Assembly: GCA_038249015.1 (NCBI GenBank)
Contig: JBBRWU010000001.1
Coordinates: 1-41,945 of the forward strand
From: Candidatus Doudnabacteria bacterium
Lineage (GTDB): Bacteria; Patescibacteriota; Doudnabacteria; UBA920
Direction: 5' to 3'
Length of the DNA stretch: 41,945 nt
The translations under genes were made by a program, and so were the position numbers. Numbering within the stretch: the stretch's first letter is position 1; each line of letters opens with the position of its first letter. A model generated the notes under the pieces. That model was not told the DNA's origin, ran no database searches, and saw nothing but the letters and a program-made list of their open reading frames with translations. Positions 9,621 through 24,475 of this stretch are shown here, in pieces.

Positions 9621-10364
9621 CTATAAGCTAAAACCTAAAAGCTTTCTTATTTGCTTTTCCGATATTGGACCTTGTCTCAGAATAGTTAAATCTTTACCTT
9701 CAATTTTAACCAAAGTTGAAGGCTTTCTTTTTAATAATTTTCCGGCGTTGATAATAATGTCGGGGCGGTATTTTTGCTTTTTAAATTGCTCAATAACCTC
9801 GTCCGCCGAATAACAATCAGCCTGACCTGAAACATTTGCACTGGTTGCCGTAATCGGATACTTTAAAATTTTTGCCAAATCTAAAGCAATATCATTCTTT
9901 GGCATTCTTAAACCAATCCAGCCTGTACTTGCCGATAATGTTTTTATTGTTTGCCGTAGAGGCTGCGCTTGCGCGCCCGTTTTTGATTGCGGGCGGCTTC
10001 CCCCTTCTCCGCCTAGGCGGATACGGAGGACAGGAAAGCTCGCCCCTACACCCTTAGCCCTTTGCCCCAATACCAACGTCAGCACTCCCGGCCACCATCG
10101 CTTGGCCAGCTTGGATGCGATTTTGCCCCATCGCACAATCTTTTTAGCATAAGCAACACTAGGCACCACAATTGAACTGGGCTTGTTAAAATTTCTACCT
10201 TTGATTTTATACAACTTTTTTATTGCGCTAATATTGCTCGCATCCACAGCCAAACCATAACTTGTATCTGTTTGGTATGCCAACACCTTCCCCTGCTTTA
10301 GTGCCAACACGCAGGCGTGGATAATTTTTTTATGGTATTTTTTTTGATAGTCAAGAATAATCAT
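9621..10364 (-). CDS. tsaC: L-threonylcarbamoyladenylate synthase (YrdC/Sua5 domain) with an internal GC-rich insertion
   Basis: Carries QTDTSYGL, KGRNFNKP, WPGVLTLVL and ATSANVSG. A segment of about 35-45 aa (GASFPVLRIRLGGEGGSRPQSKTGAQAQPLRQ) is encoded by a GC-rich palindrome-bearing block at about 9955-10055. Confidence 0.85.
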   Translation of the reverse strand: MIILDYQKKYHKKIIHACVLALKQGKVLAYQTDTSYGLAVDASNISAIKKLYKIKGRNFNKPSSIVVPSVAYAKKIVRWGKIASKLAKRWWPGVLTLVLGQRAKGVGASFPVLRIRLGGEGGSRPQSKTGAQAQPLRQTIKTLSASTGWIGLRMPKNDIALDLAKILKYPITATSANVSGQADCYSADEVIEQFKKQKYRPDIIINAGKLLKRKPSTLVKIEGKDLTILRQGPISEKQIRKLLGFSL

Positions 10365-10450
10365 AAATATCTTTACGGGGGTACGGATAACACATACGGA
10401 TATACGGAAAGAGAACGATATTCTACTTAAACCTTCCGTATTCCGTAAAA

Positions 10451-13400
10451 TTAAATTACTAAGTTCATTAATCTATTAGGCACAAAAACCACACGCTTAA
10501 TTGTTTCGCCAACCAAAGCCTGCTTTACAACCTCCATGACCACAACTTGAGCCTGCACCACTTCTTGGGAACTCCCGGCCGGCACGGTAATTTTTCCTTT
10601 AACTTTTCCGTTAATTTGGAAAACAATCTCCACAGTTGAGCTCACTGTCAAAGCCGGATCAAAAATTGGCCAACTAGTCTGCTGTAAAGATTTGATTTTC
10701 CGATTTTGCGATTTTCCGACAATCTGATGTAGTTCCTCCGAAATATGCGGGGCAAAAGGATGCAGTAAGATTAAAAATTGAGTGATAGATTCCAGGGTAA
10801 TAAACTCGTCCTTTATTTCATTATGAAATTCCATAAACGCCGAAATGGACGTATTGAATCTAAAATTTTCAATATCTTCAGTAATTTTTTTAATTAGTTT
10901 GTGCATTGCTCTCTGCACCTTCTCCGTGTCTTTTATTTCCGGCTTCCGATTTTCTGATTTTCTGATTTTCTGATGAGGTGCTTCCACAATTTCATTTACC
11001 CACGTCCACACCCTGTCTAAAAACCGCTTTACTCCCACTACACCCTTGTCATTCCAAGAGACCGTGGCTTCGTGGGGGCCTAAAAATAATTCATACATCC
11101 TTAATGTGTCAGCGCCGTGGCTCTTAACCACTTCATCAGGATTAACCACATTACCCCGGCTCTTGGACATTTTCTCCCCGTCAGGGCCTAAAATAATACC
11201 ATGTGGATGGCGTTTAGTGTAAGGCTCCTTTGATGATACCAAACCTTGGTCATACAAAAATAAATTCCAAAACCGGCTATAAAGCAAATGCAAAGTGGTG
11301 TGCTCCATCCCGCCGAAATAAATATCTACCGGTTGCCAGTATTTTAACTTCTTCATGTCGGCAAACTTTTGTTTATTCTTGGAGTCGGCGTATCTGAGCC
11401 AATACCAAGAACTGCCGGCCCATTGAGGCATGGTATTGGTTTCGCGCCAAGCGGTTTTTTTACATTTTGGACAAGTGGTTTTTAACCATTTTTTAATATT
11501 TGCCAAGGGCGATTCGCCCGTGCCGGTTGGTTCGTATTTTTTTACCTTTGGCAACATTACCGGCAAATCCTTTTCCGGGACCGGGACAATTCCGCAATCT
11601 TCACAGTGAATAAGCGGAATCGGCTCGCCCCAATAACGCTGGCGGGAAAATACCCAATCACGAAGTTTGTACTGCACTGTTAATTTGCCAAACTCCTCGC
11701 CCATTTTTATAATTGCTTCGACGGTTTTTAGCCCGTTAAATTTATCGGAATTTATTACTAACCCATAATCAACGAATGCTACGCTTTTAGTTTTTTTAAA
11801 AACGAAAAGTATGTCCTGGAAACCATCATCATTAAATCCTTTTTCCATATAATCTACAATTTCAAAACCTAAACTCTTTAACTCTTCTTCCACTTCATTT
11901 TTCTTCCAAAATTTAAAGTACCTTAAACTTTCCATCTTTGGATCTTTGACAAAATGTTCAGTGGCTTTTTTGTAATCCATTAAACTCAGGGCAAAGATAC
12001 CATTGTCTCTTAAGCCTAAATTAATCTTAGCCACTACCAATTTAAATTGCTCACGATTAAAATGCAATAAAACCTTATTTGCAAAAATTAAATCATATGA
12101 ATTAAGATCTATTTTGTCAGTGAACGCATTTAATTTTTTAATTTCTTTACCTAAACCTTTTTGGTAACTAATAAAGCTTTCCGCTGCATCAGTCCTCTCA
12201 ACTTTATAACCACGGCTTTCGATATAGTCAGAGTCCAAGCCCCTACCACTGCCCAATTCCAAAATTTTATCTGTTTTCTTTATTTTTTTTAAAAAATCAT
12301 CTACCCATTGTTTAAAGACACCATCAACCCCTCGGGTAGTTCTTTGAATATATTTATCCGCATGGTCTTCATAGGTTTTTAAAGTTATAGTGTTTTTTTC
12401 ATCGATGTTAACTACCGGGTATACTACTTGCTTAATCGGTAAATTATATCTGGTAGCAAACTCAAAGTCGCGCTCATCGTGAGCCGGCACTGCCATAATC
12501 GCTCCGGTGCCGTAATGACCTAAAACATAATCAGCTACCCACACGGTAACCTCTTCTTTGGTTGCAGGGTTAATAGCAAACAAACCTTTTAATTTTACTC
12601 CGGTTTTTTCCTTGCCTTCCGCGGTTCTTTCCATTTCCGCCTTCCCCTTTGCCTTTTCTATGTATTTCTTCACCTCGTCATAATTCGTAATTCTTGATTC
12701 ATAATTCTGAATCAGCGGATGTTCCGGCGCCACCACCATATAAGTCGCGCCGAAAATGGTATCAGGTCTGGTGGTAAAAACTTTAATCGATGGCGCGCAA
12801 TTTTCCAATAAAAAAGGTTCTTCATTACCATCAAAATGCGATTTAGTTGCGACCTGTTTTAACCACAGCCCATTTAATTCTTTTGCCAAAGACTGCCCGT
12901 CAGCTAAAGGAACGACATGGTCGGTCTCATCAGATATAGAAATAAAATTTTGTGCTTGAGCTTTAATTTTTTTGAAGTCAAAGCCTCTCTGAATTGCTTC
13001 TACCACACTTTTACGTGCTTTGCCGTCAGAAAACCTGCCAAGATACGGAGTAGATGCCAATATTACTTTATTTACTTTAATTCCTTGTTCCAACAAACGT
13101 AATGCTACAATCCCCCCAAAAGAATGACCTAAAATAACTGTTGATTCATCGAGCTTACAATTTTTCTTTACAAAATCAACTTGTTCTAAATCGCTCGGCT
13201 CATCGCCACCCGGCATTGCCGGTACCTGAACTTCGTATCCCAGTTTTTCCAACTTATTTTTTAACCAAGGTAAAAATGATTCTTCGGGTGAACTACCGCG
13301 TCCATGCAATAGCACAAACCTCTTAACACTCGGTTGATGTATGCCAAATTTAATTTCCGCGCCCGTGCTTTTACCAATCCAGTTTGCCTGTTGGAGTTTA

Positions 13401-14047
13401 ACGGCCCCCGGCCACTCGGGCAAGTTTTTCAAACCTTCCAATAATTTTTCCGCGTAAGCGGTTATCCGCAAATACCACTGGCGCAATTCTTTTTTCTGTA
13501 CGGCAGTACCGCAACGTTCACATTTACCGTCAATGACTTCTTCATTGGCCAGCCCGGTTTTATCTTTGGGGCACCAATTAATAAGTCCCGTGGCTTCGTA
13601 TGCCAAACCTTTTTTGTAAAATTGCAAAAATAACCACTGCGTCCATTTGTAGTATTCCGGATCCGTGGTGTTAATTTCCCGGTTCCAATCAAAACTCAAG
13701 CCCCAACTCTGAATTTGCCTTTTGGCATTTTTAATATTTGAGGCAGTGGTAATGGAAGGATGTACCCCCATTTTTATGGCATAATTTTCCGCCGGCAACC
13801 CAAAAGCGTCCCAGCCCATGGGGAAAAGTGTTTCAAAACCCTTCATCCGGTTAAACCGGGCCACAACGTCTCCCGCCACATACGGACGCAAATGGCCCAT
13901 ATGCAAACCGGCGCCTGAAGGATAAGGAAATTCCACCAGGATGTATTTTTTTTGCTTCTTGGAATTATCGATTGCGGAAAAAATTTTATTCTCTTCCCAA
14001 AATTTTTGCCATTTTAATTCAGTTTTTTGAGGATTGTACTTTTGCAT
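10451..14047 (-). CDS. leuS: Leucyl-tRNA synthetase carrying two inserted enzyme domains (1198 aa)
   Basis: Contains HIGH (HMGH, aa 49-52), KMSKS (aa 959-963), the CP1 editing motifs TTRPDT and GTGAIMAVPAHDERD, and RDWVFSRQRYWGEPIP. Extra domains lie at aa about 238-418 (GHSFGG hydrolase) and about 545-757 (ELGSGRG methyltransferase). Confidence 0.95.
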   Translation of the reverse strand: MQKYNPQKTELKWQKFWEENKIFSAIDNSKKQKKYILVEFPYPSGAGLHMGHLRPYVAGDVVARFNRMKGFETLFPMGWDAFGLPAENYAIKMGVHPSITTASNIKNAKRQIQSWGLSFDWNREINTTDPEYYKWTQWLFLQFYKKGLAYEATGLINWCPKDKTGLANEEVIDGKCERCGTAVQKKELRQWYLRITAYAEKLLEGLKNLPEWPGAVKLQQANWIGKSTGAEIKFGIHQPSVKRFVLLHGRGSSPEESFLPWLKNKLEKLGYEVQVPAMPGGDEPSDLEQVDFVKKNCKLDESTVILGHSFGGIVALRLLEQGIKVNKVILASTPYLGRFSDGKARKSVVEAIQRGFDFKKIKAQAQNFISISDETDHVVPLADGQSLAKELNGLWLKQVATKSHFDGNEEPFLLENCAPSIKVFTTRPDTIFGATYMVVAPEHPLIQNYESRITNYDEVKKYIEKAKGKAEMERTAEGKEKTGVKLKGLFAINPATKEEVTVWVADYVLGHYGTGAIMAVPAHDERDFEFATRYNLPIKQVVYPVVNIDEKNTITLKTYEDHADKYIQRTTRGVDGVFKQWVDDFLKKIKKTDKILELGSGRGLDSDYIESRGYKVERTDAAESFISYQKGLGKEIKKLNAFTDKIDLNSYDLIFANKVLLHFNREQFKLVVAKINLGLRDNGIFALSLMDYKKATEHFVKDPKMESLRYFKFWKKNEVEEELKSLGFEIVDYMEKGFNDDGFQDILFVFKKTKSVAFVDYGLVINSDKFNGLKTVEAIIKMGEEFGKLTVQYKLRDWVFSRQRYWGEPIPLIHCEDCGIVPVPEKDLPVMLPKVKKYEPTGTGESPLANIKKWLKTTCPKCKKTAWRETNTMPQWAGSSWYWLRYADSKNKQKFADMKKLKYWQPVDIYFGGMEHTTLHLLYSRFWNLFLYDQGLVSSKEPYTKRHPHGIILGPDGEKMSKSRGNVVNPDEVVKSHGADTLRMYELFLGPHEATVSWNDKGVVGVKRFLDRVWTWVNEIVEAPHQKIRKSENRKPEIKDTEKVQRAMHKLIKKITEDIENFRFNTSISAFMEFHNEIKDEFITLESITQFLILLHPFAPHISEELHQIVGKSQNRKIKSLQQTSWPIFDPALTVSSTVEIVFQINGKVKGKITVPAGSSQEVVQAQVVVMEVVKQALVGETIKRVVFVPNRLMNLVI

Positions 14048-14062
14048 ATGTTTATTGATTAT

Positions 14063-14317
14063 TGTAGTCTGCCGATTTATCGGCCTTTAATCATATCTGC
14101 TTGGCCTGATAAATCAGGCGACTACATTATACGTTTTATTTAGTTATGGTAGTTTGCCGATTTATCGGCTCTTAAAAGCATTTACTTTTCAGCCTGATGA
14201 ATCAGGCAACTACGCAATACATTTATTGATTATTATGATCTACCTGATTATCGGCCTGATGAATCAGGCAACTACAGTATAACTTAATTGATTATTGTAG
14301 TCTGCCGATTTATCGGC
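14063..14317. repeat. Array of REP hairpin units (at least 7 copies in alternating orientation)
   Basis: tgtagtctgccgatttatcggc (14063-14085), gcctgataaatcaggcgactaca (14104-14126), ggtagtttgccgatttatcggc (14148-14169), gcctgatgaatcaggcaactac (14192-14213), further copies at 14237-14276, and tgtagtctgccgatttatcggc (14296-14317). Confidence 0.85.
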
Positions 14318-14730
14318 TATTTATAGAATTGTTCAAATTTAATAATTTCTTCCTGTGGATTATTAATTACATACTGTCTAATTTTTTCCAAAGCTTTCTC
14401 ATTTCTAACCACATGCTCATAATAATTTGGTTGCCAAACAAACATCTGAAATTTATGTGACACCTTAGCTTTAAACCTTCTCACAACTTCTCCGAGACCG
14501 AATGAACATTGTCTTAAAATAAATATGATATGCGCATGATTTGGCATTATTACAAAATAATCCAAACTTAAACCTAAGGTTTTATTTTTTAAATCAGTAG
14601 GTTCTGATTCAATTTCCTGCTCTCTGCCTTTAAAAATATTTTCTCTTTTGTCAGCTACCACAGTTACAAAATAATAGCCATCACTTTTGTAGTCAAACTT
14701 TTTTAGTCTGATATTTTTTATGCCTCTCAT
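14317..14730 (-). mobile_element. REP-associated tyrosine transposase (RAYT, IS200/IS605 Y1 family)
   Basis: 137 aa. YYFVTVV, MPNHAHIIF (HUH motif) and WQPNYYEHVVRNEKALEKIRQYVINNP (catalytic Tyr region) are present. REP hairpins flank the gene on both sides. Confidence 0.85.
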
Positions 14731-14736
14731 AACTTG

Positions 14737-14758
14737 GCCGATAAATCGGCAGACTACA
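14737..14758. repeat. REP unit on the other flank of the RAYT gene
   Basis: gccgataaatcggcagactaca is the inverted copy of the 14296-14317 unit. Confidence 0.8.
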
Positions 14759-14838
14759 CTTTAAATAATCTTTTCGCGTTCTCTGTAATTATTTTTTCTA
14801 TTTCATCAGCTGATAAATTTTTAATTTGTGCGCTAACA
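14758..14838 (-). pseudogene. Relic of a second TatD C-terminus
   Basis: Translates to SVSAQIKNLSADEIEKIITENAKRLFKV*, which parallels the intact TatD end AKIRELSVNEVEKITFDNARTLFKI* (about half the residues identical). It is out of frame with tatD and its stop codon lies inside the REP unit. Confidence 0.5.
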
Positions 14839-14868
14839 GATCCCTCGGATGCCTCGGGATGGCAAAAA

Positions 14869-15765
14869 TTAGATTTTAAATAAAGTACGGGCATTGTCAA
14901 AGGTTATTTTTTCTACCTCATTAACCGATAACTCTCTAATTTTTGCCACTTTTTCCGCCACGTATTTCACAAATAGGGGCTCATTTCTTTTTCCTCGCAT
15001 TGGCACGGGCGACAAGTAGGGGCAATCAGTCTCAAGCAGTATTCTATCCAATGGTGTTAGTTGCGCCAACTTTTCCATATTGCCGGTTTTATCGTCCACC
15101 TCGGCGGATGGCCGGCTATTTTGATTTTTTGGTCGGCCAAATGTAATAATGCCGTTAAACGAAACATACACGCCTAAGTCTAAAAATTTCTGCAGGACTT
15201 CGGGACTGCCGGTGTAGGAATGCAGAACAGCTTTTAGCTGGTAACTGTTAGCTTTTAGATCTGCATCCAAAATGTCCAAAATGTCCAAACATGCATCGTC
15301 CGTGCCTTTGGAAGAACGGGAATGAATTACCAAAACTTTATCCAGTTCTTTTGCCAATTGGATTTGTTTTTTAAAAGCTTCCGCTTGTTTGGCTTTAACC
15401 GATTGATGAAGACTTACATCATCCGGCAATCTATAATAGTCCAGCCCGCACTCCCCTATCCCGACTGCTTTTGAATTGGATGCTAATTTTTTATATTCTT
15501 CGTAATTAAAATCTTCTTCTCTAGTTAAAAAATGTGTCTCTTCCTCATCCACATGCTGAGAATGAGTATGCTCCGGGTGAAGGCCGACCACGGCATATAT
15601 GCCTTCACTAAATTGATTCGCCAATTCCACGGCCTCGCGCGATGTATCTATTTGAGAACCCACATTAATTACCCAAGTCCCATTGTCCAAAGCCCGTTGC
15701 AAAGTTTCCTTAGCATCGTCCTTAAAACTCCTAAAATTAACGTGTGCGTGGGTGTCAATTAACAT
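14869..15765 (-). CDS. tatD: TatD-family metal-dependent hydrolase/DNase
   Basis: Carries IDTHAHV, GECGLDYY, VIHSR, HSYTG and ETDCPYL. Confidence 0.9.
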   Translation of the reverse strand: MLIDTHAHVNFRSFKDDAKETLQRALDNGTWVINVGSQIDTSREAVELANQFSEGIYAVVGLHPEHTHSQHVDEEETHFLTREEDFNYEEYKKLASNSKAVGIGECGLDYYRLPDDVSLHQSVKAKQAEAFKKQIQLAKELDKVLVIHSRSSKGTDDACLDILDILDADLKANSYQLKAVLHSYTGSPEVLQKFLDLGVYVSFNGIITFGRPKNQNSRPSAEVDDKTGNMEKLAQLTPLDRILLETDCPYLSPVPMRGKRNEPLFVKYVAEKVAKIRELSVNEVEKITFDNARTLFKI

Positions 15766-16410
15766 TTATTTTTCAAAAATTAAATACTCTGAGCTATCTT
15801 TACCTGTATTATTTCTAACCTTAAAATGCAAGCCTAAGCTTAATAAATAATCTTGTGTTTTTATATCCGCTTCCCGATTATATTCATTCAAACGATTTAA
15901 ATCTGTTTTAGTTCTTTGGACAGGTGCTTTTGAATGAATATTATAATACTCCGGGTTTTGGTCAAATAACTGCCTTTTAATAAACCCAAACCTAATCGGA
16001 AAAACCCTGCTTTCCCCATTAACCGCCTGAACTCTAAACATCTCTTTTAAAATTTTTTCTGCTTCAAATTGTTTTTCAACCAAATACAATGGACCATTTC
16101 TACTTATAATTAAATCAAACGCATTACTTTCAAACGGCATGAGTGAAGCATTGCCTTTTACATAATTTAAACCTCTATTTTTTACTTGATTAGGTGTTTC
16201 TAAAGAAAATGAAACAAATTTTTTAGGATAACCTCTTAAATGAATGGCTTTTTCAACTGCCGCTGTTGAGGCTCCTAAATCTAAAGTTTTATTTTTGCGA
16301 AGTATGCCCTCAATAGTCAAACCCAAATCATCTAATATTTTCTTTGCTTCAGAAAATATCTTTTCATTTTCTAAGTCTAATCTATGCTGCTCTAAATATT
16401 CTCCATCCAT
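15766..16410 (-). CDS. Class I SAM-dependent methyltransferase-like protein
   Basis: LDLGASTAAVEKA resembles motif I and FDLIISRNGPLY resembles motif IV. The start is chosen at MDGEY, where the ATG overlaps the metG stop codon (TAATG). The longer track ORF would overlap metG by 82 nt. Confidence 0.6.
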   Translation of the reverse strand: MDGEYLEQHRLDLENEKIFSEAKKILDDLGLTIEGILRKNKTLDLGASTAAVEKAIHLRGYPKKFVSFSLETPNQVKNRGLNYVKGNASLMPFESNAFDLIISRNGPLYLVEKQFEAEKILKEMFRVQAVNGESRVFPIRFGFIKRQLFDQNPEYYNIHSKAPVQRTKTDLNRLNEYNREADIKTQDYLLSLGLHFKVRNNTGKDSSEYLIFEK

Positions 16411-17942
16411 TATATTATTCTCGGAAACAGTCGTGGAATATTTTCCACGCTGATGTCTTTTAATGCGGTTATAATTTTTGCACTGGTCCACGGCAAAACC
16501 GGGACCAAGGCTGTGGCCAGTTCTTCCAGTTTGCTCAGCAACTGTTCAATATCTTTTTTTGCTTTTTCCGGGTCAATTTTAATTACTTTAAACGGTTCAT
16601 TTTTTTGGATAAACTCGTCGCAGGCCTGAACTTTTTTCCAAATTTCATCCATATATTTTTGGAGTTGATAGTTATCAATCAACGAATTTTTCCCATCATG
16701 ATTCAACCTCTCTGCCTCGGATGCACTCGGCTTCTCCCCTCGCCAGGGGAGAAGGGACGCAGACGCCGCCATTTTCAAAATCCTGCTGGTCAAATTCCCT
16801 ATTCCATTGGCCAGTCCGGCATTATAACTTTCCGCAAAACGTTCCCAGGTGTAATCGCCGTCTTCAAAAGTCGGAATTTCGCGAAGTAAATAATAGCGCA
16901 AAGCTTCTGTCGCCTGCTCTGTATGTAAACCTTTTTCTATGAGTTGATTAATAATTGCATAAGGATCGGCCACATTACCCAATGACTTGGACATTTTTTG
17001 CCCGCCACTGGTTATAAACCCATGAATAATTATTTGTTTGGAATTTGGCAAGCCCGCGGACATTAACATTGCCTGCCACATGGCGGACTGTTGGCGGAGG
17101 TTATCTTTACCGGCAATTTGAACGCCCGGCCAATAATCCTGGAACTCAAAACCCTCACCCTGCCCTCTCTCAGAGGGAGAGGAGGGAGAAGGAGGCCAGC
17201 CCAAAGTTGAAACGTAATTGATGAGCGCGTCAAACCACACATACATAACATGGTTTTCGTCCCCCGGAACCGGAATACCCCAGGACATTTTTTCCTTTAA
17301 CCGGGAAACACTAAAATCTTCCAGGCCGTTTTTTACAAATTCCTTAATTTCGTTAAAGCGGAAATCCGGCACCACAAAGTCCGGCTGTTTTTGGTACAAA
17401 TCCAAAAGCGGTTGTTGGTATTTGGACCAGCGAAAAAAATAGTTTTCCTCTTCGCGGATTTCCAATTCCAAATTCGGATGAATAGGACATTTACCGTCCA
17501 CCAGCTCACTTTCGGTCTTCCCTAGCTCACAACCCACGCAATACTTGGTTTTATAATTCTTTTTATAAATATCGCCGTTTTTTTCACATTGACGCCAAAA
17601 TTCCTGCGCTGCCTCAACATGATGGGCGTCTGTGGTGCGGATAAAATGAATTTCGGGGCTAATTCCCAAAGCCGGCATAAGTTTTTTAAACTTATCCGCG
17701 TATTCATCTACATAACTTTGCACGTCCTGATTATTTTCCTGCGCCTTTTGAAAGATTTTCTGCCCGTGTTCGTCTGTACCGGTATTAAAAAACACATCCT
17801 GGTTTAAAACTTCTTTGTGGTAACGGGCAATAACGTCGGCCTGAACCATTTCTAAAGCAAACCCTAAATGAGGGTCTGAATTAACGTAAGGCAAAGCTGT
17901 GGTGATGTAGAATTTATTTTTGCTCATTGGTAATAATATCAA
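16410..17942 (-). CDS. metG: Methionyl-tRNA synthetase with two short GC-rich in-frame insertions
   Basis: Contains YITTALPYVNSDPHLGF, a CxxC..C zinc knuckle and KMSKS. The alternative start MSKNKF is at 17927. Inserts lie at about 17150-17200 (PPSPSSPSERGQGEG) and about 16706-16770 (LLPWRGEKPSASEAE). Confidence 0.95.
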   Translation of the reverse strand: MILLPMSKNKFYITTALPYVNSDPHLGFALEMVQADVIARYHKEVLNQDVFFNTGTDEHGQKIFQKAQENNQDVQSYVDEYADKFKKLMPALGISPEIHFIRTTDAHHVEAAQEFWRQCEKNGDIYKKNYKTKYCVGCELGKTESELVDGKCPIHPNLELEIREEENYFFRWSKYQQPLLDLYQKQPDFVVPDFRFNEIKEFVKNGLEDFSVSRLKEKMSWGIPVPGDENHVMYVWFDALINYVSTLGWPPSPSSPSERGQGEGFEFQDYWPGVQIAGKDNLRQQSAMWQAMLMSAGLPNSKQIIIHGFITSGGQKMSKSLGNVADPYAIINQLIEKGLHTEQATEALRYYLLREIPTFEDGDYTWERFAESYNAGLANGIGNLTSRILKMAASASLLPWRGEKPSASEAERLNHDGKNSLIDNYQLQKYMDEIWKKVQACDEFIQKNEPFKVIKIDPEKAKKDIEQLLSKLEELATALVPVLPWTSAKIITALKDISVENIPRLFPRII

Positions 17943-19596: not shown

Positions 19597-20673
19597 TTAT
19601 TTCTTGAGGTTATCCCTCAAAGACTTTAAGATTTTAATATCTACTTTGACTTTATCATGCTCGGTTTCCAAAATCAAGGGCATAGAGCGAAGCACTTCAT
19701 TACTCTCCCCCTCTGACGGGGTAGAGAGGGTTGATGACAAACTCCCCAAAAACTCCCCGAAACCCTTTTTCCCAATCAGTCCTTCACCAATATGTTCGTG
19801 GCGGTCTTTCCGTGCACCCAATTCTACCTTGGAATCGTTAATATGGCTCATTTTCAACCATTTTAAACCAATTATTTTATCAAACTGCTTTATCCAATCG
19901 CCTTTTCTAACATCATAACCGCTCGCCCAGGCATGCTGAGTATCAAAACATATCCCGCCAAAACCGGGATGCTTTTTTAGCGGTTCCATTAACTCGGCCA
20001 CCTCTTCAAAAGTATCGCCCAAAATTTCCCCGGCTCCGGCTGCTATTTCAATTAAAAGTTGTGATGTTCCTTTGTACCCGTCTAAAACTTTTTTTAAGCC
20101 TTCTTGCGCCTGCTTAATGGCTTTGGCTTTGCCCAAATCTTTTCCGCTACCGGTATGGAACATAACAAATTTGCCACCTAGCAGGCTGGCGCGCTCCAAT
20201 TCTCCGCGGACGATTGCTATTGAGCTGTGATAGGTTTGAGGCTTGCCTGAGCCAAAATTTATGTAATACGGGCAATGTACCACGAAATCACACCCCCACC
20301 TTCCCTCCCCCATCAAAGGGGAGGAACTTTCGTTTACTTTTCCCTCCCCCTTGTGGGGAGGGTTAGGCCTGCCCCGTACCGAAGCCGACGGACATCGGAG
20401 CGACTGGTACTGGGGGAGGGGGTAATACTTATGCATTTCATCTTTAAATTTTTCTACCACCTCCCCGGTTAATTCCGGTGCCGGTCCGCCTTGCGGACTG
20501 CGCGTAAAAATTTGAAAAGTCTCACAACCTAAAAAAGCCGCGCGTTCTGGTGCGTTAAAAACACCTCCGGCAATGGACACGTGACAACCAATAGTAAATA
20601 CCTTATTATTCTCCCCAAGTCTGGGGAGATGCTCCGAAGGAGCAGAGAGGTTGTTTTTTTTCATAAATAGCAA
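19597..20673 (-). CDS. nfo: Endonuclease IV (AP endonuclease, xylose-isomerase-like TIM barrel) with three GC-rich in-frame insertions
   Basis: Carries HCPYYINFGS, FHTGS, LIEIAAG, CFDTQHAWASGYD, HINDSK..KDRHEHIGEG and LILETE. It is 358 aa against roughly 280 typical for the family. Inserts lie at about 20291-20425, 20611-20643 and 19703-19730. Confidence 0.9.
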   Translation of the reverse strand: MLFMKKNNLSAPSEHLPRLGENNKVFTIGCHVSIAGGVFNAPERAAFLGCETFQIFTRSPQGGPAPELTGEVVEKFKDEMHKYYPLPQYQSLRCPSASVRGRPNPPHKGEGKVNESSSPLMGEGRWGCDFVVHCPYYINFGSGKPQTYHSSIAIVRGELERASLLGGKFVMFHTGSGKDLGKAKAIKQAQEGLKKVLDGYKGTSQLLIEIAAGAGEILGDTFEEVAELMEPLKKHPGFGGICFDTQHAWASGYDVRKGDWIKQFDKIIGLKWLKMSHINDSKVELGARKDRHEHIGEGLIGKKGFGEFLGSLSSTLSTPSEGESNEVLRSMPLILETEHDKVKVDIKILKSLRDNLKK

Positions 20674-20676
20674 ATT

Positions 20677-21222
20677 TTATTTCGTTTTTAACCATTGGGT
20701 AATTTTATCTTGAGTTTCTAAATAGCAAAGCCCTGCCCAATTAGCGGAATTTTTTTGGCCTTCCTGCAAAGCCTCCAACATATCCCACCACTTCACTTCC
20801 GTAATTTCCCCATCGTTAAATTTAATATCCGACTTTTTACCGTCAAATAAAAGCGCGTAAAGCCAGACAAAATGTTTGGAAGTTTGACTTTTTCGGGTGT
20901 CTAAAAAAAATAAATCTTCAGGTAAAACTTTTAAACCAATCTCTTCTTCGAGTTCCTCCACCGCATTACTTAAAGGCGCTTGTTTGTATTGCACGTGCCC
21001 GCCAAAAGCCATTTGCCACCTGCCCGGATTTTGATTTAAGTTCTCACTGCGCTTTGAACATAAAATTCTACCTTCCGGATTCACCACAAATATCCCCGTG
21101 CCAATGTGCCAAAAATTCAATGGCTGGGTATGGACTTCGCTCCGCGTTTTTCCTTCAGTTGGCTTACCGTTTTCATCACAGCATTGGAGCATCTCATCTT
21201 CGGGGTTGGGAAAAATATGCAT
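20677..21222 (-). CDS. Nudix hydrolase
   Basis: Nudix box GGHVQYKQAPLSNAVEELEEEIGL. Confidence 0.8.
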   Translation of the reverse strand: MHIFPNPEDEMLQCCDENGKPTEGKTRSEVHTQPLNFWHIGTGIFVVNPEGRILCSKRSENLNQNPGRWQMAFGGHVQYKQAPLSNAVEELEEEIGLKVLPEDLFFLDTRKSQTSKHFVWLYALLFDGKKSDIKFNDGEITEVKWWDMLEALQEGQKNSANWAGLCYLETQDKITQWLKTK

Positions 21223-21262
21223 AATTTATTATTCAATATAGGTTATCTCTCCAAATTTGGAG

Positions 21263-21321
21263 AGTAGTTTGCCGATTTATCGGCCATTTTGCCGAGAAGC
21301 CTGATAAATCAGGCAACTACA
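21263..21321. repeat. REP hairpin pair, same family as at the RAYT locus
   Basis: agtagtttgccgatttatcggc ... gcctgataaatcaggcaactaca. Confidence 0.8.
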
Positions 21322-21427
21322 TTATTAAACTTCCTGCTCGTAAATATTTCCATAGTAGTTCTTCCCAAACTGTAGATTGTTTTCTTAATTGTTTTAAAGA
21401 ATCAATCAAATAATCATTTCTCTTCAT
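21318..21427 (-). pseudogene. N-terminal fragment of a DUF559-type (Vsr-like endonuclease domain) gene, truncated at the REP pair
   Basis: MKRNDYLIDSLKQLRKQSTVWEELLWKYLRAGSLIM*. The LRK..T..E..LW.YLR pattern is typical of DUF559 N-termini. The ORF ends inside the REP. Confidence 0.4.
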
Positions 21428-21468
21428 ACGACCTCTCCCCATTCCCTCCCCAAACTTTGGGAGGGAGA

Positions 21469-22737
21469 CTAAAAGGTTAAAATCTTTTTAAAGATTTTGT
21501 CATTTTTATACGGCCCAATTATAGCCAAACTCATATTTTTTTTCTGAAATAAATCCTGTGCTACTTTTTTTATTTCTACTGCGGTAACGGCGTCAATTTT
21601 TTTAAACACTTCCTTGGGACTTAAAATTTTCGGTTTAAAAGCTGTTGCTTCTACCACCCAATCTAAACGTGCCTGATTATCTTCCAAAGCTAAAATTGTT
21701 CTGCCTTTTAAATACTCTTTAGCTTTTTTTAATTCTTCGTTTCCGACAAGAATTTTTTTAACTTTTTCCAGCTCCTCTAAAATAACTTTAATAGCTTCTT
21801 CAATTTTAATTACTTGGACGCCGGCGCGTACGCCAAATACTCCGGTATCCTGATACGCCGAACCGGAAGCGGAAACGTAGTAAGCCAATCCCCTTTTTTC
21901 CCGGACTTCGGTAAATAATCGGCCGGACATTCCGCCGGAAAGCACGGCAGACATAACCGTCTGCGCCGCAACCTGTTTATGACCATACGGCAAACCTTTA
22001 AAACCAAAGGACAAATGTGCCTGTTCGGTTTGTTTAAACTGCAAACTTAAACGAGGAGTTGTTTGCTTGTCTTTTGTCTTCTCCCAACCGTGAAATTTCT
22101 TTTTTGGAACAGCTTCCCAATATTTTTTAATTAATGCGTTTAATTTTTGCTTATTATACTTACCCGAAACTCCCAAAATCATATTTGGTGTTTGATAGTG
22201 CCTATTTGTGTAGTCCGCGAACATTTCGCGGGTAAACTTAACCACCGTGTCTTTGGTGCCGGCAATATCACGGCCCAACGGTTCATTCGGCCACATAACA
22301 TTTTCCAAAATATTTTCAATTTCGTACATTGGCGTGTCCTTGTACATATTTATTTCTTCCACAATTACGCCTTTTTCTTTTTCCAATTCAACCGAATCCA
22401 ATAACGGATTTTGAATCATATCCGTAAGCAGTTCAAAAATTAATTCCAAATGTTTGCTGGCTGCCTTAATATAAAACTGCGTATGTTCCTTGCCCGTATT
22501 GGCATTCATTTCTCCGCCAATGGAATCCACAATGGAAGAAATTGCCATGGCGCTTGGATATTTTTTTGTGCCTTTAAACAAAAAGTGTTCAAGAAAATGG
22601 GAAATCCCGCTTTCTTTTTCCGTTTCGCTTCTGGAGCCGGTTTTTACAAAAAAATCCACCACCACGCTTTCCGCGTCCTGGGACGGAACTTCTAAAACGG
22701 TAAGACCGTTAGCTAACTTCCTTTTTTGATATTTCAT
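21469..22737 (-). CDS. M16 (pitrilysin/insulinase) family zinc peptidase
   Basis: Inverted zinc motif HFLEHFLFKG (HxxEH). 422 aa with the two-domain layout. Confidence 0.85.
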   Translation of the reverse strand: MKYQKRKLANGLTVLEVPSQDAESVVVDFFVKTGSRSETEKESGISHFLEHFLFKGTKKYPSAMAISSIVDSIGGEMNANTGKEHTQFYIKAASKHLELIFELLTDMIQNPLLDSVELEKEKGVIVEEINMYKDTPMYEIENILENVMWPNEPLGRDIAGTKDTVVKFTREMFADYTNRHYQTPNMILGVSGKYNKQKLNALIKKYWEAVPKKKFHGWEKTKDKQTTPRLSLQFKQTEQAHLSFGFKGLPYGHKQVAAQTVMSAVLSGGMSGRLFTEVREKRGLAYYVSASGSAYQDTGVFGVRAGVQVIKIEEAIKVILEELEKVKKILVGNEELKKAKEYLKGRTILALEDNQARLDWVVEATAFKPKILSPKEVFKKIDAVTAVEIKKVAQDLFQKKNMSLAIIGPYKNDKIFKKILTF

Positions 22738-22749
22738 AATTTAAGTACT

Positions 22750-23244
22750 TTATTGGTTTTTTAAATAATCCTCAAACCTTTTAAGTTGTGTCTCTGATTC
22801 TTTTAAAAATATTTCTACAAGCCCTTCTGCATCGGGAAAATCCATTATTTCTTTCAGAACTTGTTCATAATGTGCCAAAAGATTAGCAGGAATCTCCAAG
22901 ATCATCTGAATGTGACTTTGATCTTCAGGAATTATATTCCTTGCTATTCCTTGACTAATAGCTTCAGATGTTTCAGTTGATGGGACTGCCACAAGTTTTC
23001 TTTGACTAATATTATACAGTAAATCCTCAAATCTTCTGCCTTGGCCAAATTTAGAGGCAGTACCTAATGAACCACCAAGTTGGTCTCTTACGTCATTACC
23101 AACGGTAGCCTCTTTTTGGAGCTCTAAAAGAAGGCCTCTATTCTCTGATTGCAATGCTACCAGTTTTTCCCGGATTGGTTTAAATTGTAGCTCAAGCTGT
23201 GAAATCAATGTCTCTCTCGGACTTATTTCCCTTGAATTATCCAT
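22750..23244 (-). CDS. Hypothetical protein
   Basis: 164-aa ORF, predicted helical. No motif is recognised. Confidence 0.5.
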   Translation of the reverse strand: MDNSREISPRETLISQLELQFKPIREKLVALQSENRGLLLELQKEATVGNDVRDQLGGSLGTASKFGQGRRFEDLLYNISQRKLVAVPSTETSEAISQGIARNIIPEDQSHIQMILEIPANLLAHYEQVLKEIMDFPDAEGLVEIFLKESETQLKRFEDYLKNQ

Positions 23245-23266
23245 AAATAAAATCTAATTTATTAAT

Positions 23267-24475
23267 TTATAAAATATTTTCTTCCAGCCTTGTTGGCTGA
23301 TAAATAAATTTATTAACTTTATTGCCTTTTAAATATACCAAATCCTCAATTCTTATGCCACCTAGGCGTGGAATATAGACTCCGGGTTCAATACTAAAGA
23401 CCATGCCGGGTTTTAATATGTCTTTAGAGTTTGGCGATAAATTCGGTAGTTCGTGAATTTCCAAACCAGTTCCGTGTCCGAGTGAATGAATAAAATATTT
23501 GTCCAAACCCTTCTCTGCCAGAACGTCCACGGCTTTCTGGTAAACATCGCCACCCATAACTCCTGTGTCATTGCGAGCCCCGAGTGCTGCCGAGGGACGT
23601 GGCAATCCCTTTTTTGATTTTAGATTGCTTCGGTCGGATGCACTCCCTCGCAATGACACAAAATTTATACTTTCATTATACGCCTTTTCCACCTGATTAT
23701 AGGCCAATTCCAGTTTCGGATGAACCTTTTTTAAAAACACAGTCCGCGTAAAATCACTGCAATAATTTTTATACTTAAAACCAAAATCTATAATAATGGA
23801 TTCCCCTGCCTTCAGGCGCTTACTTGACGGCACATGGTGCGGGATTGCGGCATTTACTCCGCTGGCAACAATTGGCGGAAAAGAAACATCTTCCGCTCCT
23901 AGTTTAAGACCCGCTGATCGAATAAAATTTGCCAATCCTAATTCCGTAATAGCAGGCCGAGGGCCCGCACTACATAAACGTTTTTTTATCTGTAAAAAAA
24001 CCGCTTCCACAATCTGCATAGACTTTCTAATTTTCGCAATTTCCGATGCGTCTTTTACCTGTCGCTGATAATCCACCGGACTTTTTACGTGTGTGATTTT
24101 AATCTTTAATCCGGGATCTTTTCCGCCAAAGGCGGATCCGCCTTTGGCGGAAATTTTTTGCTTAATATATTCATATTCCTTAAACGTAAACTCATCTTCC
24201 AACTCTAAGTTAGGCGCTTTACCTAAGTAAAGCGGTATGTTTTTTAACCTGTCCGATTTCATTCCCGGTGCCAATTCCAACCCATCGCCAAAAAATACCA
24301 CGGCGTGCCCTCTTCTCCCTTTGGGAGAAGAGGCCCGAAGGGCAGATGAGGGTTTAATTAAAAGGTACCCACTCATAAAAGACCGCCCTGTTAAGTAAAA
24401 CAGGTTTTCTTTTTTCTTAATTAGAATCGGATTTTTTATTTGCGCCTGTAACTTGCGCAAGCGCTTGAAACTCAT
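23267..24475 (-). CDS. M24B Xaa-Pro peptidase (aminopeptidase P-like) with three in-frame palindromic insertions
   Basis: Carries IIDFGFKYKNYCSDFTRT, HSLGHGTGLEIHELP, FSIEPGVY and GGIRIEDLV. Inserts lie at 23564-23660, 24121-24152 and 24309-24333. Confidence 0.85.
   Translation of the reverse strand: MSFKRLRKLQAQIKNPILIKKKENLFYLTGRSFMSGYLLIKPSSALRASSPKGRRGHAVVFFGDGLELAPGMKSDRLKNIPLYLGKAPNLELEDEFTFKEYEYIKQKISAKGGSAFGGKDPGLKIKITHVKSPVDYQRQVKDASEIAKIRKSMQIVEAVFLQIKKRLCSAGPRPAITELGLANFIRSAGLKLGAEDVSFPPIVASGVNAAIPHHVPSSKRLKAGESIIIDFGFKYKNYCSDFTRTVFLKKVHPKLELAYNQVEKAYNESINFVSLRGSASDRSNLKSKKGLPRPSAALGARNDTGVMGGDVYQKAVDVLAEKGLDKYFIHSLGHGTGLEIHELPNLSPNSKDILKPGMVFSIEPGVYIPRLGGIRIEDLVYLKGNKVNKFIYQPTRLEENIL

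Follow-up and report, generated by a model that had tools for sequence, protein, structure and literature searches.

We analysed a window of 41,945 nucleotides whose nearest syntenic loci are in Candidatus Doudnabacteria MAGs. Hence, the host genome is of the CPR type, as a sequence-only reading of this DNA had proposed. That reading had also listed ten short GC-rich blocks inserted in frame into at least five housekeeping genes (Table 1). Pfam identities, intact ORFs and alignments with the syntenic Doudnabacteria orthologue loci L001-L013 and with PDB chains bear this out: each listed segment is extra sequence, in frame and free of stop codons, and the host genes are intact. Orthologues without the insert are the majority at most sites, and the catalytic columns are invariant. 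The closest relatives of the window are about 73-78% identical, and a search for near-identical strains differing by an insert found none. These alignments indicate that the segments are lineage-variable insertions and not conserved ancestral sequence.

Table 1. Host genes, inserts, intergenic elements and transposase gene in the window.
Feature	Position	Strand	Description
Sua5/YrdC (tsaC)	9621-10364	minus	Pfam
tsaC insert	9951-10046	minus	composite palindrome; 32 extra codons (aa 107-138)
TatD	14869-15765	minus	Pfam
tatD insert	15094-15138	minus	15 codons (GRPKNQNSRPSAEVD); decayed TCCGCC-gag-GTGGA unit
MetRS (metG)	16410-17942	minus	Pfam
metG insert B	16700-16757	minus	perfect 9-10 bp hairpin CTTCTCCCC-tggcga-GGGGAGAAG, then shared word CCGAGTGCATCCGAGG
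metG insert A	17145-17186	minus	PSPSSPSERGQGEG; CT-rich arm, GA-rich arm, hairpin CCCTCT-ctc-AGAGGG
AP_endonuc_2 (nfo)	19597-20673	minus	Pfam
nfo C-terminal-site insert	19701-19736	minus	STPSEGES; imperfect hairpin CTCTCCCCC...GGGGTAGAGAG
nfo large insert	20292-20424	minus	about 45 codons; hairpins CCCTCCCC-cttgt-GGGGAGGG and CCTCCCC-catcaaa-GGGGAGG, third stem
nfo N-terminal extension	20605-20650	minus	adjacent hairpins TGCTCC-ttc-GGAGCA and TCTCCCC-agactt-GGGGAGA (coding strand)
M24 peptidase	23267-24475	minus	Pfam
M24 site 3	23564-23660	minus	94-nt element; terminal inverted repeats of 12-13 nt, (G)TGTCATTGCGAG...CTCGCAATGACA(C)
M24 site 2	24122-24151		twin hairpin TCCGCC-aaa-GGCGGA TCCGCC-ttt-GGCGGA, encodes SAKGGSAFGG
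M24 site 1	24302-24349	minus	small hairpin GCCC-ttc-GGGC, then CCTCTTCTCCC-aaa-GGGAGAAGAGG
Intergenic cluster	207-324		three elements, including second twin hairpin (294-323)
Intergenic composite palindrome	7997-8060		outer stem AGCCCGGTCAAAC/GTTTGACGGGCT
GTAG-tagged REPs around RAYT	14064-14757		GTAGTCTGCCGATTTATCGGC at 14064, 14149, 14297
RAYT (REP-associated tyrosine transposase, Y1 HUH)	14317-14730	minus	Pfam Y1_Tnp, 29.8 bits (cutoff 23)
Intergenic single unit, 3' of tatD	14835-14859	minus	ATCCCGAGG-cat-CCGAGGGAT
Intergenic hairpin directly after M16 stop codon	21443-21466		TCCCTCCC-caaacttt-GGGAGGGA

GC content is 0.55-0.73 in the ten listed segments and only 0.40-0.46 in their host genes, and most segments fold far more strongly than shuffled sequences. 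Two of them have little hairpin potential: the tatD segment (z -0.9) and the CT/GA low-complexity stretch of metG at 17145-17200 (z -0.1) fold no more strongly than shuffles as single strands. When 45-nt stretches of eight genes are ranked by stability, 18 of the top 25 come from listed segments. The listed segments have a mean MFE of -13.4 kcal/mol against -6.3 kcal/mol (p = 2e-12), a difference that survives GC matching (p = 7e-5). The window holds 46 perfect GC-rich hairpins with stems of at least 6 bp, where dinucleotide or block shuffles give 7.0 ± 2.6, and seven with stems of at least 8 bp (0.17 in shuffles); CCGCCNNNGGCGG occurs six times, with 0.01 expected. The hairpins are also polar. 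CCGCC..GGCGG is found 47 times, where shuffles give 1-4, and the C-rich arm is the 5' one in 104 hairpins against 44. For CTCCCC...GGGGAG hairpins the polarity is fixed (11 occurrences, none in the opposite order). Non-domain inserts of eight genes in 14 genomes have a GC content of 0.5-0.73 and an MFE z as low as -8. Hairpin density is patchy across related genomes, from 0 to 0.88 per kb, and no Rfam family matches the elements.

The inserts differ in how widely they are shared. The one in tsaC is missing from 10 of 10 orthologues and from PDB 9d3h. It has a GC content of 0.66 in a gene of 0.42 and folds stably (RNA MFE z -4.95, DNA fold z -2.15). An outer stem (GTAGGGGCG.../...GCAGCCTCTAC) surrounds two inner hairpins, one of which is TCCGCC-ta-GGCGGA, and the ends of this composite element are GTAG...CTAC. 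Here, ccgcctaggcgg lies at 10005-10016; the words quoted in the sequence-only reading were found at the positions it gave. The tatD insert occurs only in the window and in L003, with a nucleotide identity of 0.93 and a third-position identity of 0.87, against 0.48 in the remaining gene (binomial p 0.002). The hairpin of metG insert B (cttctcccc-tcgcca-ggggagaag, 16731-16754) is common only to L002 (96% over 24 nt), in a region that is indel-variable among orthologues. Insert A corresponds to a 16-residue gap in the A. aeolicus MetRS 2csx; five of the 13 orthologues lack it, and the others carry a different sequence. Ordinary loop variation or the decay of former copies might account for the tatD segment and metG 17145-17186.

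All three nfo inserts are real, but the one at 20611-20643 is an N-terminal extension and not an internal loop. This extension, with hairpins at 20610-20629 and 20630-20644 (DNA fold z -4.76), recurs in only a few homologues (NNLSAPxxHLPKLGE). The large insert, with hairpins at 20304-20324 and 20342-20362 (DNA fold z -3.15), is missing from seven of 10 orthologues and from PDB 1xp3; of 120 homologues, 40 are expanded to some extent at this loop. At the C-terminal site, 37 of 120 have an insert of at least 5 aa, mostly of SPxxGE type.

In the M24 peptidase, site 1 (DNA fold z -4.0) is missing in L005, L008 and L013 and divergent in L001, L003, L009 and L012. Compared with L001 and L003, the twin hairpin of site 2 (DNA fold z -7.55; model pLDDT 55) adds exactly 10 codons at ATT|AAA. 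Site 3 accounts for 30 residues absent from PDB 3q6d (DNA fold z -5.1), and we interpret its element as two REP-like hairpins, TGTC-tagged and AT-initiated, joined head to head. The same family occupies this site in L002, L003 and L008, as well as the atpH-atpA spacer of L017. In L003, a shift of frame in the left arm gives GVQPTKQSH instead of the GSASDRSNL of the window, although the DNA is 78% identical (68% across the gene). Hence, what is conserved is the DNA and not the peptide, and the suggestion that the host proteins have exapted their loops is unsupported for the same reason. A further small GC-rich insert of this gene (aa 168-172, about 23960-23975) was absent from the earlier list.

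AlphaFold models of nfo and M24 have cores with pLDDT above 93, while the inserts are modelled as coil with pLDDT 47-78 (71-73 at the nfo C-terminal site, 47-67 for residues 81-125 of the large insert). The inserts are thus predicted to occupy low-confidence coil loops within otherwise confident folds, which agrees with the surface-loop tolerance proposed earlier. Among 120 nfo and 120 M24 homologues, length heterogeneity is limited mainly to two to four sites.

The most widespread element is the 30-bp twin hairpin, TCCGCC-nnn-GGCGGA repeated twice. The window has two copies, in M24 and in a spacer (94% identical to each other), L003 has two, and metagenomes have at least 120 loci. Among the matches listed, about 60% of the copies fall within long ORFs, and 49 (about 40%) lie outside them. 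The 78 copies in ORFs of at least 150 aa, again among the matches listed, are read as SAxGG (68, or 87%), PPxAD (8) or RRxRI (2), and the reading frame of intragenic copies is strongly filtered. Hosts include FtsK, DnaE, AlaRS, MutL, UvrC, DnaK, the CCA-adding enzyme, a class II aaRS, ComM-like proteins, GatB, PGI, RtcA and others, from more than 20 unrelated protein families; AtpA of L017 also contains it, and three M24 homologues (P0279, P0309, P0329) have it at another M24 site. This member is spread over many essential genes in environmental metagenomes. Filled and empty sites can be compared directly. The tsaC site is filled in L003, CAG TTT[30 bp]AAA AAC, and empty in the window, CAA TTT|AAA AAG; the M24 site is filled in the window, AAA ATT[30 bp]AAA GAT, and empty in L001, AAG CTT|AAA GAT. 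In 127 copies among the matches listed, T predominates before the element (0.85 at -2) and A after it (0.83 at +2), and no direct repeat indicative of target duplication flanks them. Judging from these junctions, insertion of the twin hairpin is precise, at TT|AAA, and leaves the target unduplicated, as HUH/Y1 chemistry would predict. Decayed copies occur in M24 of L009 and RseP of P0122.

Spacer copies are real at 207-324, 7997-8060 and 21443-21466, as had been claimed. The first cluster includes CCTCGGAG-tagag-CTCCGAGG (207-227) and GTCCGCC-tag-GGCGGAC (258-274). The palindrome at 7997-8060 encloses CGGCCCCATAGGCCG and ATCCCGCC-aa-GGCGGGAT, an architecture that matches the tsaC insert. The single unit 3' of tatD is akin to M24 site 3 units of L005 and L009.

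The interval of the earlier reading also contains a RAYT gene with its own REPs, which that reading did not mention. The protein matches NCBIfam REP_Tyr_transpos with E 1.2e-18, below that family's cutoff, and has orthologues in L001 (syntenic) and L013, both flanked by REPs in a like arrangement. An inverted GTAG REP copy lies at 14736-14757, variants (GCCTGATrAATCAGGCrACTAC) at 14104, 14192 and 14254, and another pair at 21264-21284 and 21299-21320. By its layout, this is a classical REPtron structure. The REPs of the RAYT (GTAGTCTGCCGATTTATCGGC) are a family distinct from the GC-rich elements, AT-richer and found in spacers only, and most GC-rich hairpins carry no GTAG or CGTC tag. For the GC-rich elements, neither a target-site duplication nor a parent insertion sequence was found.

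Sequence comparison places the elements in repeat families common to genes, spacers and genomes: the 30-bp twin, the 94-nt TGTCATTGCGAG-ended element (CGTC/TGTC-tagged, REP-like), the CTCCCC hairpins and the GTAG...CTAC composite. The proposed likeness to RPEs thus holds for repeat families in genes and spacers, with the refinement that several unrelated families are involved, not one. We consider it probable (about 0.8) that the GC-rich blocks are several families of non-autonomous palindromic selfish DNA, filtered for tolerable peptides. Small REP-, REPIN- or MITE-like elements would have invaded a CPR genome that is AT-rich and gene-dense. Within genes, an insert would survive only when its length is divisible by three, it has no stop codon, its frame yields a flexible Ser/Ala/Gly/Pro/Arg/Glu peptide and it lands in a surface loop or terminus tolerant of added residues. 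The outcome would be intact enzymes carrying disordered loops. We infer that the elements moved as single-stranded hairpins through an HUH/Y1 transposase (IS200/IS605- or RAYT-type) acting in trans, for which the RAYT of the window is a candidate. The repeated use of the same loops may reflect structural permissiveness and/or a preference for inserting beside or into existing hairpins.

Ordinary lineage-specific loop expansion might instead have made low-complexity, self-complementary sequence locally in permissive loops, by slippage, template switching or GC-biased processes, with no mobile element. The same few loops do vary in length across many lineages, metG 17145-17186 is a CT-run then a GA-run that folds no better than shuffles, and several inserts, including most of those in the window (tsaC, nfo large, M24 site 1), have one copy each in the DNA compared, which covers 42 kb of this genome. 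We find this unlikely, for four reasons. One identical 30-bp sequence recurs at no fewer than 120 unrelated sites; a gene and, in another class-level lineage, an unrelated spacer both carry a 94-nt element whose terminal inverted repeats agree; hairpin polarity is fixed; and filled and empty sites differ by the exact element. Selected structures acting in cis, as proposed for REPs, are if anything slightly less probable. They could be mRNA stabilisers, translation-pause sites, antisense terminators, or protein- or gyrase-binding sites. Arms remain complementary though their sequences differ by lineage, the M24 twin with its upstream A-run looks like a strong terminator on the antisense strand, spacer copies lie directly past stop codons at 8029 and 21443, and REPs are reported mostly 3' of ORFs (PMC3733652). 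However, intragenic positions vary between close relatives and are empty in many orthologues, some copies have decayed, Rfam gives no match, and the consensus flanks, TTT-hairpin-AAA on both strands, are the opposite of a terminator.

It is very doubtful that the peptides were selected, as Ser/Ala/Gly or Pro/Gly/Glu linkers or interaction motifs, with DNA palindromy secondary. The SAxGGSAxGG bias and the recurrence of the same peptides across many proteins would fit, but among the matches listed many twin copies lie outside long ORFs and other frames exist; orthologues use two different frames for one element, the inserts have no AlphaFold structure, and insert-free orthologues predominate at most sites. 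The least probable reading is that naturally competent CPR cells gathered uptake signals, often as inverted pairs, through biased uptake and recombination. Neisseria DUS and Haemophilus USS are the analogues, and the motifs here are likewise short, over-represented, often inverted pairs and common to related lineages. Uptake signals, however, arise by substitution in existing sequence, whereas these elements are precise codon-adding insertions, of several unrelated families side by side, whose density differs between close relatives (0 to 0.9 per kb).

Several known systems come close to these elements. Like mobile GC clusters and coding palindromes of organelles, e.g. Nematomorpha mitochondria (PMC6649704), our elements are GC-rich or perfect palindromes inside genes of AT-rich compact genomes. 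The genetic systems differ, and in Nematomorpha both arms are conserved coding sequence, whereas here they are dispensable insertions. MITEs can also fuse in frame with host ORFs, as intragenic ERIC, BOX and Coxiella QMITE1 do (PMC10969869), and share non-autonomy and terminal inverted repeats (M24 site 3). Unlike for MITEs, no target-site duplication or parent was found here and the intragenic share is far higher (about 60% of twin hairpins among the matches listed). REPIN/RAYT systems move REP doublets with a single-copy domesticated Y1 transposase. The window similarly has a RAYT between inverted GTAG REPs, a REP pair elsewhere (21264/21299) and a twin hairpin in which a 15-nt unit is paired with its inverted copy, but the cognate REPs are the AT-richer, spacer-confined family.

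Intragenic GTAG-/CGTC-tagged REPs include RPE-4/-6 and Neisseria dRS3 (Di Nocera et al. 2013, PMC3733652), and one family here resembles their CGTC/TGTC-tagged class. Both consist of 20-40 bp hairpins, often head-to-head dimers encoding 20-30 residues within genes. In M24 site 3 units a TGTC tag precedes a stem that begins with AT, the L013 unit (TGTC-ATTCCGGC...GCCGGAAT-CCA) has the described CCA tail, and GTAG...CTAC bounds the tsaC insert. Loops here are 12-22 nt instead of 4-5, and the twin and CTCCCC hairpins are untagged. CGTC repeats were recorded in five phyla, CPR not among them (PMC3733652), and we found no description of in-frame palindromic elements for CPR in the literature. The in-frame behaviour itself is already known from RPEs and intragenic REPs (PMC3733652, PMC10969869). 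According to PMC10969869 (after Ogata et al. 2000), RPEs are palindromic, stop-free and in frame in unrelated housekeeping genes, with RPE-1 of ~100-150 bp. Compared with that account, our elements are mostly far shorter (15-45 nt modules, the 30-bp twin, 94-135 nt composites), contrast sharply in GC content with their AT-rich host, and belong to Patescibacteria/CPR instead of Alphaproteobacteria. The likeness is one of behaviour: in both, small, AT-rich, gene-dense genomes carry several families, with copies in spacers and fold-compatible peptide loops in proteins.

The gene names that the sequence-only reading had given to the window (G+C 39.7%) were borne out by Pfam. Almost all long ORFs, including every gene treated here, lie on the minus strand. 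A MetRS scan of one genome per species retrieved syntenic loci from Patescibacteria MAGs, Candidatus Doudnabacteria among them; the highest identity was 76%, with no closer relative. The source genome is therefore CPR, as had been guessed.

Genes of the window and positions of four of their inserts
Feature	Positions	Strand	Source
Sua5/YrdC (tsaC)	9621-10364	minus	Pfam
LeuRS	10451-14047	minus	Pfam
TatD	14869-15765	minus	Pfam
MetRS	16410-17942	minus	Pfam
AP_endonuc_2 (nfo)	19597-20673	minus	Pfam
M24	23267-24475	minus	Pfam
NUDIX and M16 genes		minus	Pfam
Large nfo insert	20292-20424
M24 site 1	24302-24349
M24 site 2 (twin hairpin)	24122-24151
M24 site 3	23564-23660

We took orthologues from the syntenic loci (L001 to L013) and compared them with the window. 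Only the window has the tsaC segment (aa 107-138), and only the window and L003 have the tatD segment; at the two metG, the three nfo and the three M24 sites, genomes vary in having the segment, lacking it or showing a different one. The inserts are also missing from solved structures (1xp3 for nfo, 3q6d for M24, 9d3h for TsaC and 2csx for MetRS). Alignments and structures thus agree that the segments are lineage-specific insertions. The five host genes hold ten in-frame inserts and all five ORFs are uninterrupted, so that the other half of the claim, insertion into housekeeping genes without disruption, stands as well. Among 120 nfo homologues, with a baseline length of about 283 aa, 40 have an insert of at least 5 aa in the loop of the window's large insert and 37 have one at the C-terminal site. 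For M24 site 3, the figure is 64 of 120 homologues. Inteins, introns and translational bypass were ruled out, the inserts being 5-45 codons long, in frame, stop-free and devoid of catalytic motifs.

Judged from sequences and models, the host proteins look functional, with inserts in predicted loops. Both nfo and M24 keep the catalytic columns that are invariant in their homologue alignments. For nfo, AlphaFold gives a mean pLDDT of 87 (core above 93) and predicts residues 81-125, 1-20 and 311-330 as coil with pLDDT 47-73. The M24 model has a mean of 91 and falls at 41-60, at 111-120 (to 55) and at 271-310 (to 51). In both models the inserts are predicted as coil (pLDDT 47-78) between confident secondary-structure elements, in line with the expectation of surface loops.

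GC islands and perfect hairpins occur just where the sequence-only reading had placed them. The window holds 46 GC-rich perfect hairpins with stems of at least 6, against 7.0 ± 2.6 in shuffles, and 7 against 0.17 for stems of at least 8; CCGCCNNNGGCGG occurs 6 times (0.01 expected). About 16 GC-rich elements can be counted, 10 of them intragenic. In 45-nt windows of eight genes, the mean MFE of the proposed segments is -13.4 kcal/mol against -6.3 elsewhere (p = 2e-12), the difference persists with GC matching (p = 7e-5), and 18 of the 25 most stable windows come from these segments. In ssDNA folding, hairpin potential held for the M24 twin (z = -7.6), M24 site 3 (-5.1), the nfo N-terminus (-4.8), M24 site 1 (-4.0), the large nfo insert (-3.2) and tsaC (-2.2). 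Three segments are no different from shuffles: tatD (-0.9), metG 17145-17200 (-0.1) and the C-terminal site of nfo (-1.4). An Rfam search of the whole window (E ≤ 1) returned two tRNAs and chance matches, and none of its families covered the hairpins. Non-domain inserts, compared over eight genes and up to 14 genomes, have a GC content of about 0.5-0.73 against gene means of 0.36-0.5, and roughly half have an MFE z below -2 (minimum -8). Hairpin inserts are therefore a general phenomenon in the clade, at a patchy density: strong hairpins range from 0 to 0.88 per kb among related loci.

The polarity of the GC-rich hairpins is strand-independent in the window and in L001 to L080. Of these hairpins, 104 have a C-rich and 44 a G-rich 5' arm (p = 9e-7), which is not a coding-strand effect because the hairpin reads alike on both strands. 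Outside the interval first proposed, GC-rich intragenic blocks are found at the C-terminus of PNPase (37293-37440; gene 37285-39543) and in a PAP2 gene (4443-4454), with hairpins CCGCC-tga-GGCGG and CCGCC-ca-GGCGG; these are probably more in-frame elements.

The best-resolved family is a 30-bp twin hairpin. The copy in M24, TTTCCGCCAAAGGCGGATCCGCCTTTGGCGGAA (24120-24152), has a second copy, 94% identical, in the spacer at 292-324, and L003 holds two, one within tsaC. An exact-match scan of metagenome contigs, whose counts are lower bounds, found the pattern at at least 120 loci; the 42 kb of the source genome examined hold two copies. The 127 copies listed give the consensus TTT-TCCGCC-RRA-GGCGGA-TCCGCC-TYY-GGCGGA-AAA and show no excess of flanking direct repeats of 2-6 nt. 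Their contigs are CPR-like and AT-rich (median GC 0.43 among the matches listed). A scan of viral contigs gave 2 matches only and no sign of phage vectors. An assembly artefact was ruled out, as the elements recur in many independent projects, and so was a general role as terminator, as the consensus has TTT...AAA flanks on both strands.

About 60% of the listed copies (78/127) lie inside ORFs of at least 150 aa; the remaining 49 fall outside long ORFs. All three frames are stop-free, and a single one is used by 87% of the listed copies in long ORFs: it encodes SAxGGSAxGG (68 copies), against 8 for PPxADPPxAE and 2 for an Arg-rich frame. Pfam matched 19 of the 20 host ORFs scanned. Hosts include FtsK, Pol III alpha, AlaRS, MutL, UvrC (twice), DnaK, an ABC1 kinase, the CCA-adding enzyme, a class II aaRS, a ComM-like protein, an AMP-binding enzyme, GatB, PGI, a GH18 enzyme, a solute-binding protein, a class V aminotransferase, RtcA and an LptC-related domain protein. 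The twin also occurs in AtpA of a further locus (L017) and at another M24 site in three homologues.

Two pairs of filled and empty sites define the unit that moves. In tsaC, L003 reads CAG TTT[30 bp]AAA AAC and the window CAA TTT/AAA AAG; in M24, the window reads AAA ATT[30 bp]AAA GAT and L001 AAG CTT/AAA GAT. Neither pair has a target-site duplication. On these pairs, what moves is the 30-bp core, ten codons to the base, which enters between TT and AAA without duplication. As a sign of recent movement, near-identical alleles with and without an insert were sought for nfo, M24 and a metagenomic RseP with two elements, and the closest relatives are only 73-78% identical. This RseP, a CPR site-2 protease (L085:1019-2155, P0121), carries a twin hairpin (SAKGGSASGG) and a VIASSPEA...SLRAESEAIS element. 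Its homologue P0122 (78% identical) reads SAQFGKSVSVE where the twin would lie, which looks like a decayed copy.

M24 site 3 is a 94-nt imperfect palindrome with ends TGTCATTGCGAG...CTCGCAATGACA; its family is found at the equal site in L002, L003 and L008 and in the atpH-atpA spacer of a Falkowbacteria locus. The same site holds a different unit in L005 and L009, ATCCCGAG...GGGAT, and a third in L013, TGTC-ATTCCGGC...GCCGGAAT-CCA. The left arm reads GSASDRSNL in the window and GVQPTKQSH in L003, with 78% identity in DNA (whole gene 68%). Two reading frames from such similar DNA indicate that the DNA is conserved, not the peptide. Hairpins of the forms CTCCCC...GGGGAG and CCTCCC...GGGAGG are carried by nfo, metG and M24 site 1 as well as by the spacer at 21443, and their translations are the recurrent SPxxxGE motifs of homologues. 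Their polarity is fixed: in 1.3 Mb of CPR loci, we counted 11 and 7 of these, respectively, none in reverse order, and 47 occurrences of CCGCC..GGCGG against 1-4 in shuffles. The tsaC insert is a composite, with an outer stem GTAGGGGCG.../...GCAGCCTCTAC and two inner hairpins, an architecture found again in the spacer element 7997-8060. The tatD inserts of the window and L003 are 93% identical, and their third-position identity is 0.87, compared with 0.48 for the remainder of the gene (p = 0.002); this suggests that the insert is younger than the species split, was copied between lineages or is constrained as DNA. When the window inserts were searched by BLAST in 1.3 Mb of related loci, additional copies turned up for the twin, M24 site 3, tatD and metG-B hairpin elements only, and the tsaC, nfo and M24 site 1 inserts had no second copy.

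Another recurrent element, approximately TTCGCTAAAGCTwyGkCGGACAAG, gives FAKATADK in one frame and SLKLRRTS in another. It is found in M24 of L009 (4879-6075, SSFAKAMADK), in the nfo homologue P0074, in the M24 homologues P0294 and P0296, and at M24 site 3 of L013 (TSLKLRRTS). The L009 copy sits at the exact codon boundary (after AAG ATT) of the window's twin hairpin.

The window also encodes a transposase that the sequence-only reading had passed over. ORF 14317-14730 is a Y1 HUH transposase (Pfam Y1_Tnp above cutoff), matching the NCBIfam REP-associated tyrosine transposase (RAYT) model at E = 1e-18, under the curated cutoff. GTAG-tagged hairpins (GTAGTCTGCCGATTTATCGGC and inverted copies) flank it, and a further inverted GTAG pair, REPIN-like, lies at 21264/21299 in the NUDIX-M16 spacer. 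By sequence, 14048-14765 and 21264-21320 together constitute a complete, classical REPtron. Orthologues with equal REP flanks are found in the syntenic tatD-leuS spacer of L001 and beside M24 of L013; given its synteny in L001, the RAYT looks vertically inherited. Its REPs are AT-richer and, in the window, strictly intergenic, unlike the GC-rich elements. The gene shows that the lineage has hairpin-specific single-strand transposition chemistry; for the GC-rich elements, it is a candidate mobiliser only.

Several other features of the window are distinct. LeuRS (1198 aa) has two whole embedded domains, one on either side of the editing domain: first an alpha/beta-hydrolase (aa 244-340), then a SAM methyltransferase (aa 577-731). 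The cargo differs among orthologues: a hydrolase is at the equal place in L002, L003 and L009, L008 (12619-15708) has a hydrolase beyond the editing domain, and L001 (13541-16429) has a NUDIX domain. These domains are AT-rich, in contrast to the hairpin inserts. The interior of leuS also contains two copies (10698-10744 and 10944-10990) of a heptad-like repeat of the TTCCGATTTTCTGATTTTC type, a distinct AT-rich intragenic repeat with Lys/Ser/Glu/Asn/Arg-rich translations (SENRKPEIK, SQNRKIKS). A PaaX-like gene (476-1177) is bracketed by a long AT-rich perfect palindrome, TTGTTGAAAAAAGTTACAAATGTAACTTTTTTCAACAA, at 434-472 and 1180-1218 (82% identical), which may be operators or terminators. A defence-like AT-rich island (27895-33956) encodes GmrSD/HNH, Fic, an AAA_13 ATPase and an EcoRI-type adenine methyltransferase. 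Between an MFS transporter and tsaC lies a 23S rRNA intervening-sequence/four-helix-bundle protein (9237-9605), Avd-like with a weak DGR-Avd match.

We consider it probable (about 0.8) that the GC-rich blocks are selfish, non-autonomous palindromic DNA. They insert precisely, form multi-copy families over genes, spacers and genomes, are conserved at the DNA level and are strongly filtered by frame and site. Other origins weighed for such blocks were local slippage, selection for RNA or DNA structure, peptide exaptation and DNA uptake sequences. Each fails on one or more of the following: the filled and empty sites, the distribution over many genes, the change of frame and the flanks. Uptake sequences come about by substitution in pre-existing sequence, not by insertion, whereas these elements, set beside empty orthologous sites, have exactly 10 or more extra codons.

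How selfish palindromes of this kind would spread is a matter of more tentative proposals. The twin hairpin, its 15-nt single unit and the CTCCCC/GGGGAG hairpins could be undescribed ultra-small mobile DNA with a dedicated mechanism, the twin being ten stop-free codons that enter at TT/AA with no duplication and no GTAG or CGTC tag, mostly in essential CPR genes; we regard this as possible, though doubtful. It might then be spread by a Y1/HUH enzyme of novel specificity, for instance, or through hairpin-primed repair. For the selfish palindromes in general, movement as single-stranded hairpins by a Y1/HUH enzyme acting in trans is a proposal of low confidence; it fits the lack of target duplication and the short, specific target. 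The reuse of the same loops by different elements may reflect structural permissiveness, possibly reinforced by insertion beside or into existing hairpins, to which the composites and a 12-nt addition within the L003 tatD hairpin point.

CPR genomes are of about 1 Mb and have almost no spacer DNA, which makes the place of selfish DNA in them an open question. Our results suggest that it lives within essential genes, as in Rickettsia. If the twin is undescribed mobile DNA, it would be a major, general cause of protein length heterogeneity among CPR orthologues. Gene callers, orthology and length-based quality filters will meet unexplained Pro/Ser/Gly/Arg-rich loops in CPR proteins. The inserts are also a ready source of new surface loops and strain-level markers. 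The clean entry of a 30-bp palindrome between TT and AAA without duplication is a tractable substrate for finding the responsible enzyme, and the frame statistics of the twin directly measure selection on random peptide insertions in essential proteins.

Among known systems, MITEs share the terminal inverted repeats of M24 site 3 (12-13 nt, perfect), and the tsaC and 7997-8060 composites have MITE-like outer stems, but the 127 listed twin copies show no excess of direct repeats and the filled/empty pairs no target-site duplication. The window and 2 Mb of loci yielded RAYT homologues but no parent autonomous IS with matching termini. REPs and REPINs are multi-copy imperfect palindromes of 20-40 bp; the elements agree in size and palindromy, and the twin has many copies across metagenomes and two in the 42 kb of the source genome. 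REPs differ in having a conserved unpaired GTAG end (the twin has TTT/AAA flanks, the CTCCCC hairpins are untagged, and only the tsaC composite among the GC-rich elements ends in GTAG...CTAC), a RAYT flanked by matching REPs (here the flanks are of the GTAGTCTGCCGATTTATCGGC type, not the GC-rich elements) and a mostly extragenic location, against about 60% of the 127 listed twin copies in ORFs of at least 150 aa. CGTC-tagged REPs have a CGTC/TGTC/CCTC tag, an AT-initiated stem of 8-9 bp, a loop of 4-5 nt and a near-CCA 3-nt tail, and are mostly arranged as head-to-head dimers (Di Nocera 2013, PMC3733652). Only M24 site 3 has such a tag, stem, tail and dimer with inverted termini (TGTC-ATTGC...GCAAT-CTA in the window, L003 and L008, and the CCA-tailed unit of L013 given above), but its loops between AT-initiated stems are 12-22 nt; the twin and the CTCCCC hairpins have none of the tag features. 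The literature searched, itself incomplete, held no description of such elements in CPR/Patescibacteria and nothing relevant on the terminal repeat sequence of M24 site 3. The closest likeness is to Rickettsia palindromic elements (RPEs), whose hallmark is in-frame palindromic insertion (PMC10969869). Palindromic in-frame insertion without disruption is found in the window, and the nfo and M24 models predict fold-compatible surface-loop sites, so that the RPE-like behaviour first suspected finds support on both features. The host lineage differs from Rickettsia, and the likeness to RPE-1 to RPE-10 is a functional analogy only. In-frame palindromic insertion was thus known from Rickettsia; what is new, within the literature searched, is its presence in CPR/Patescibacteria.
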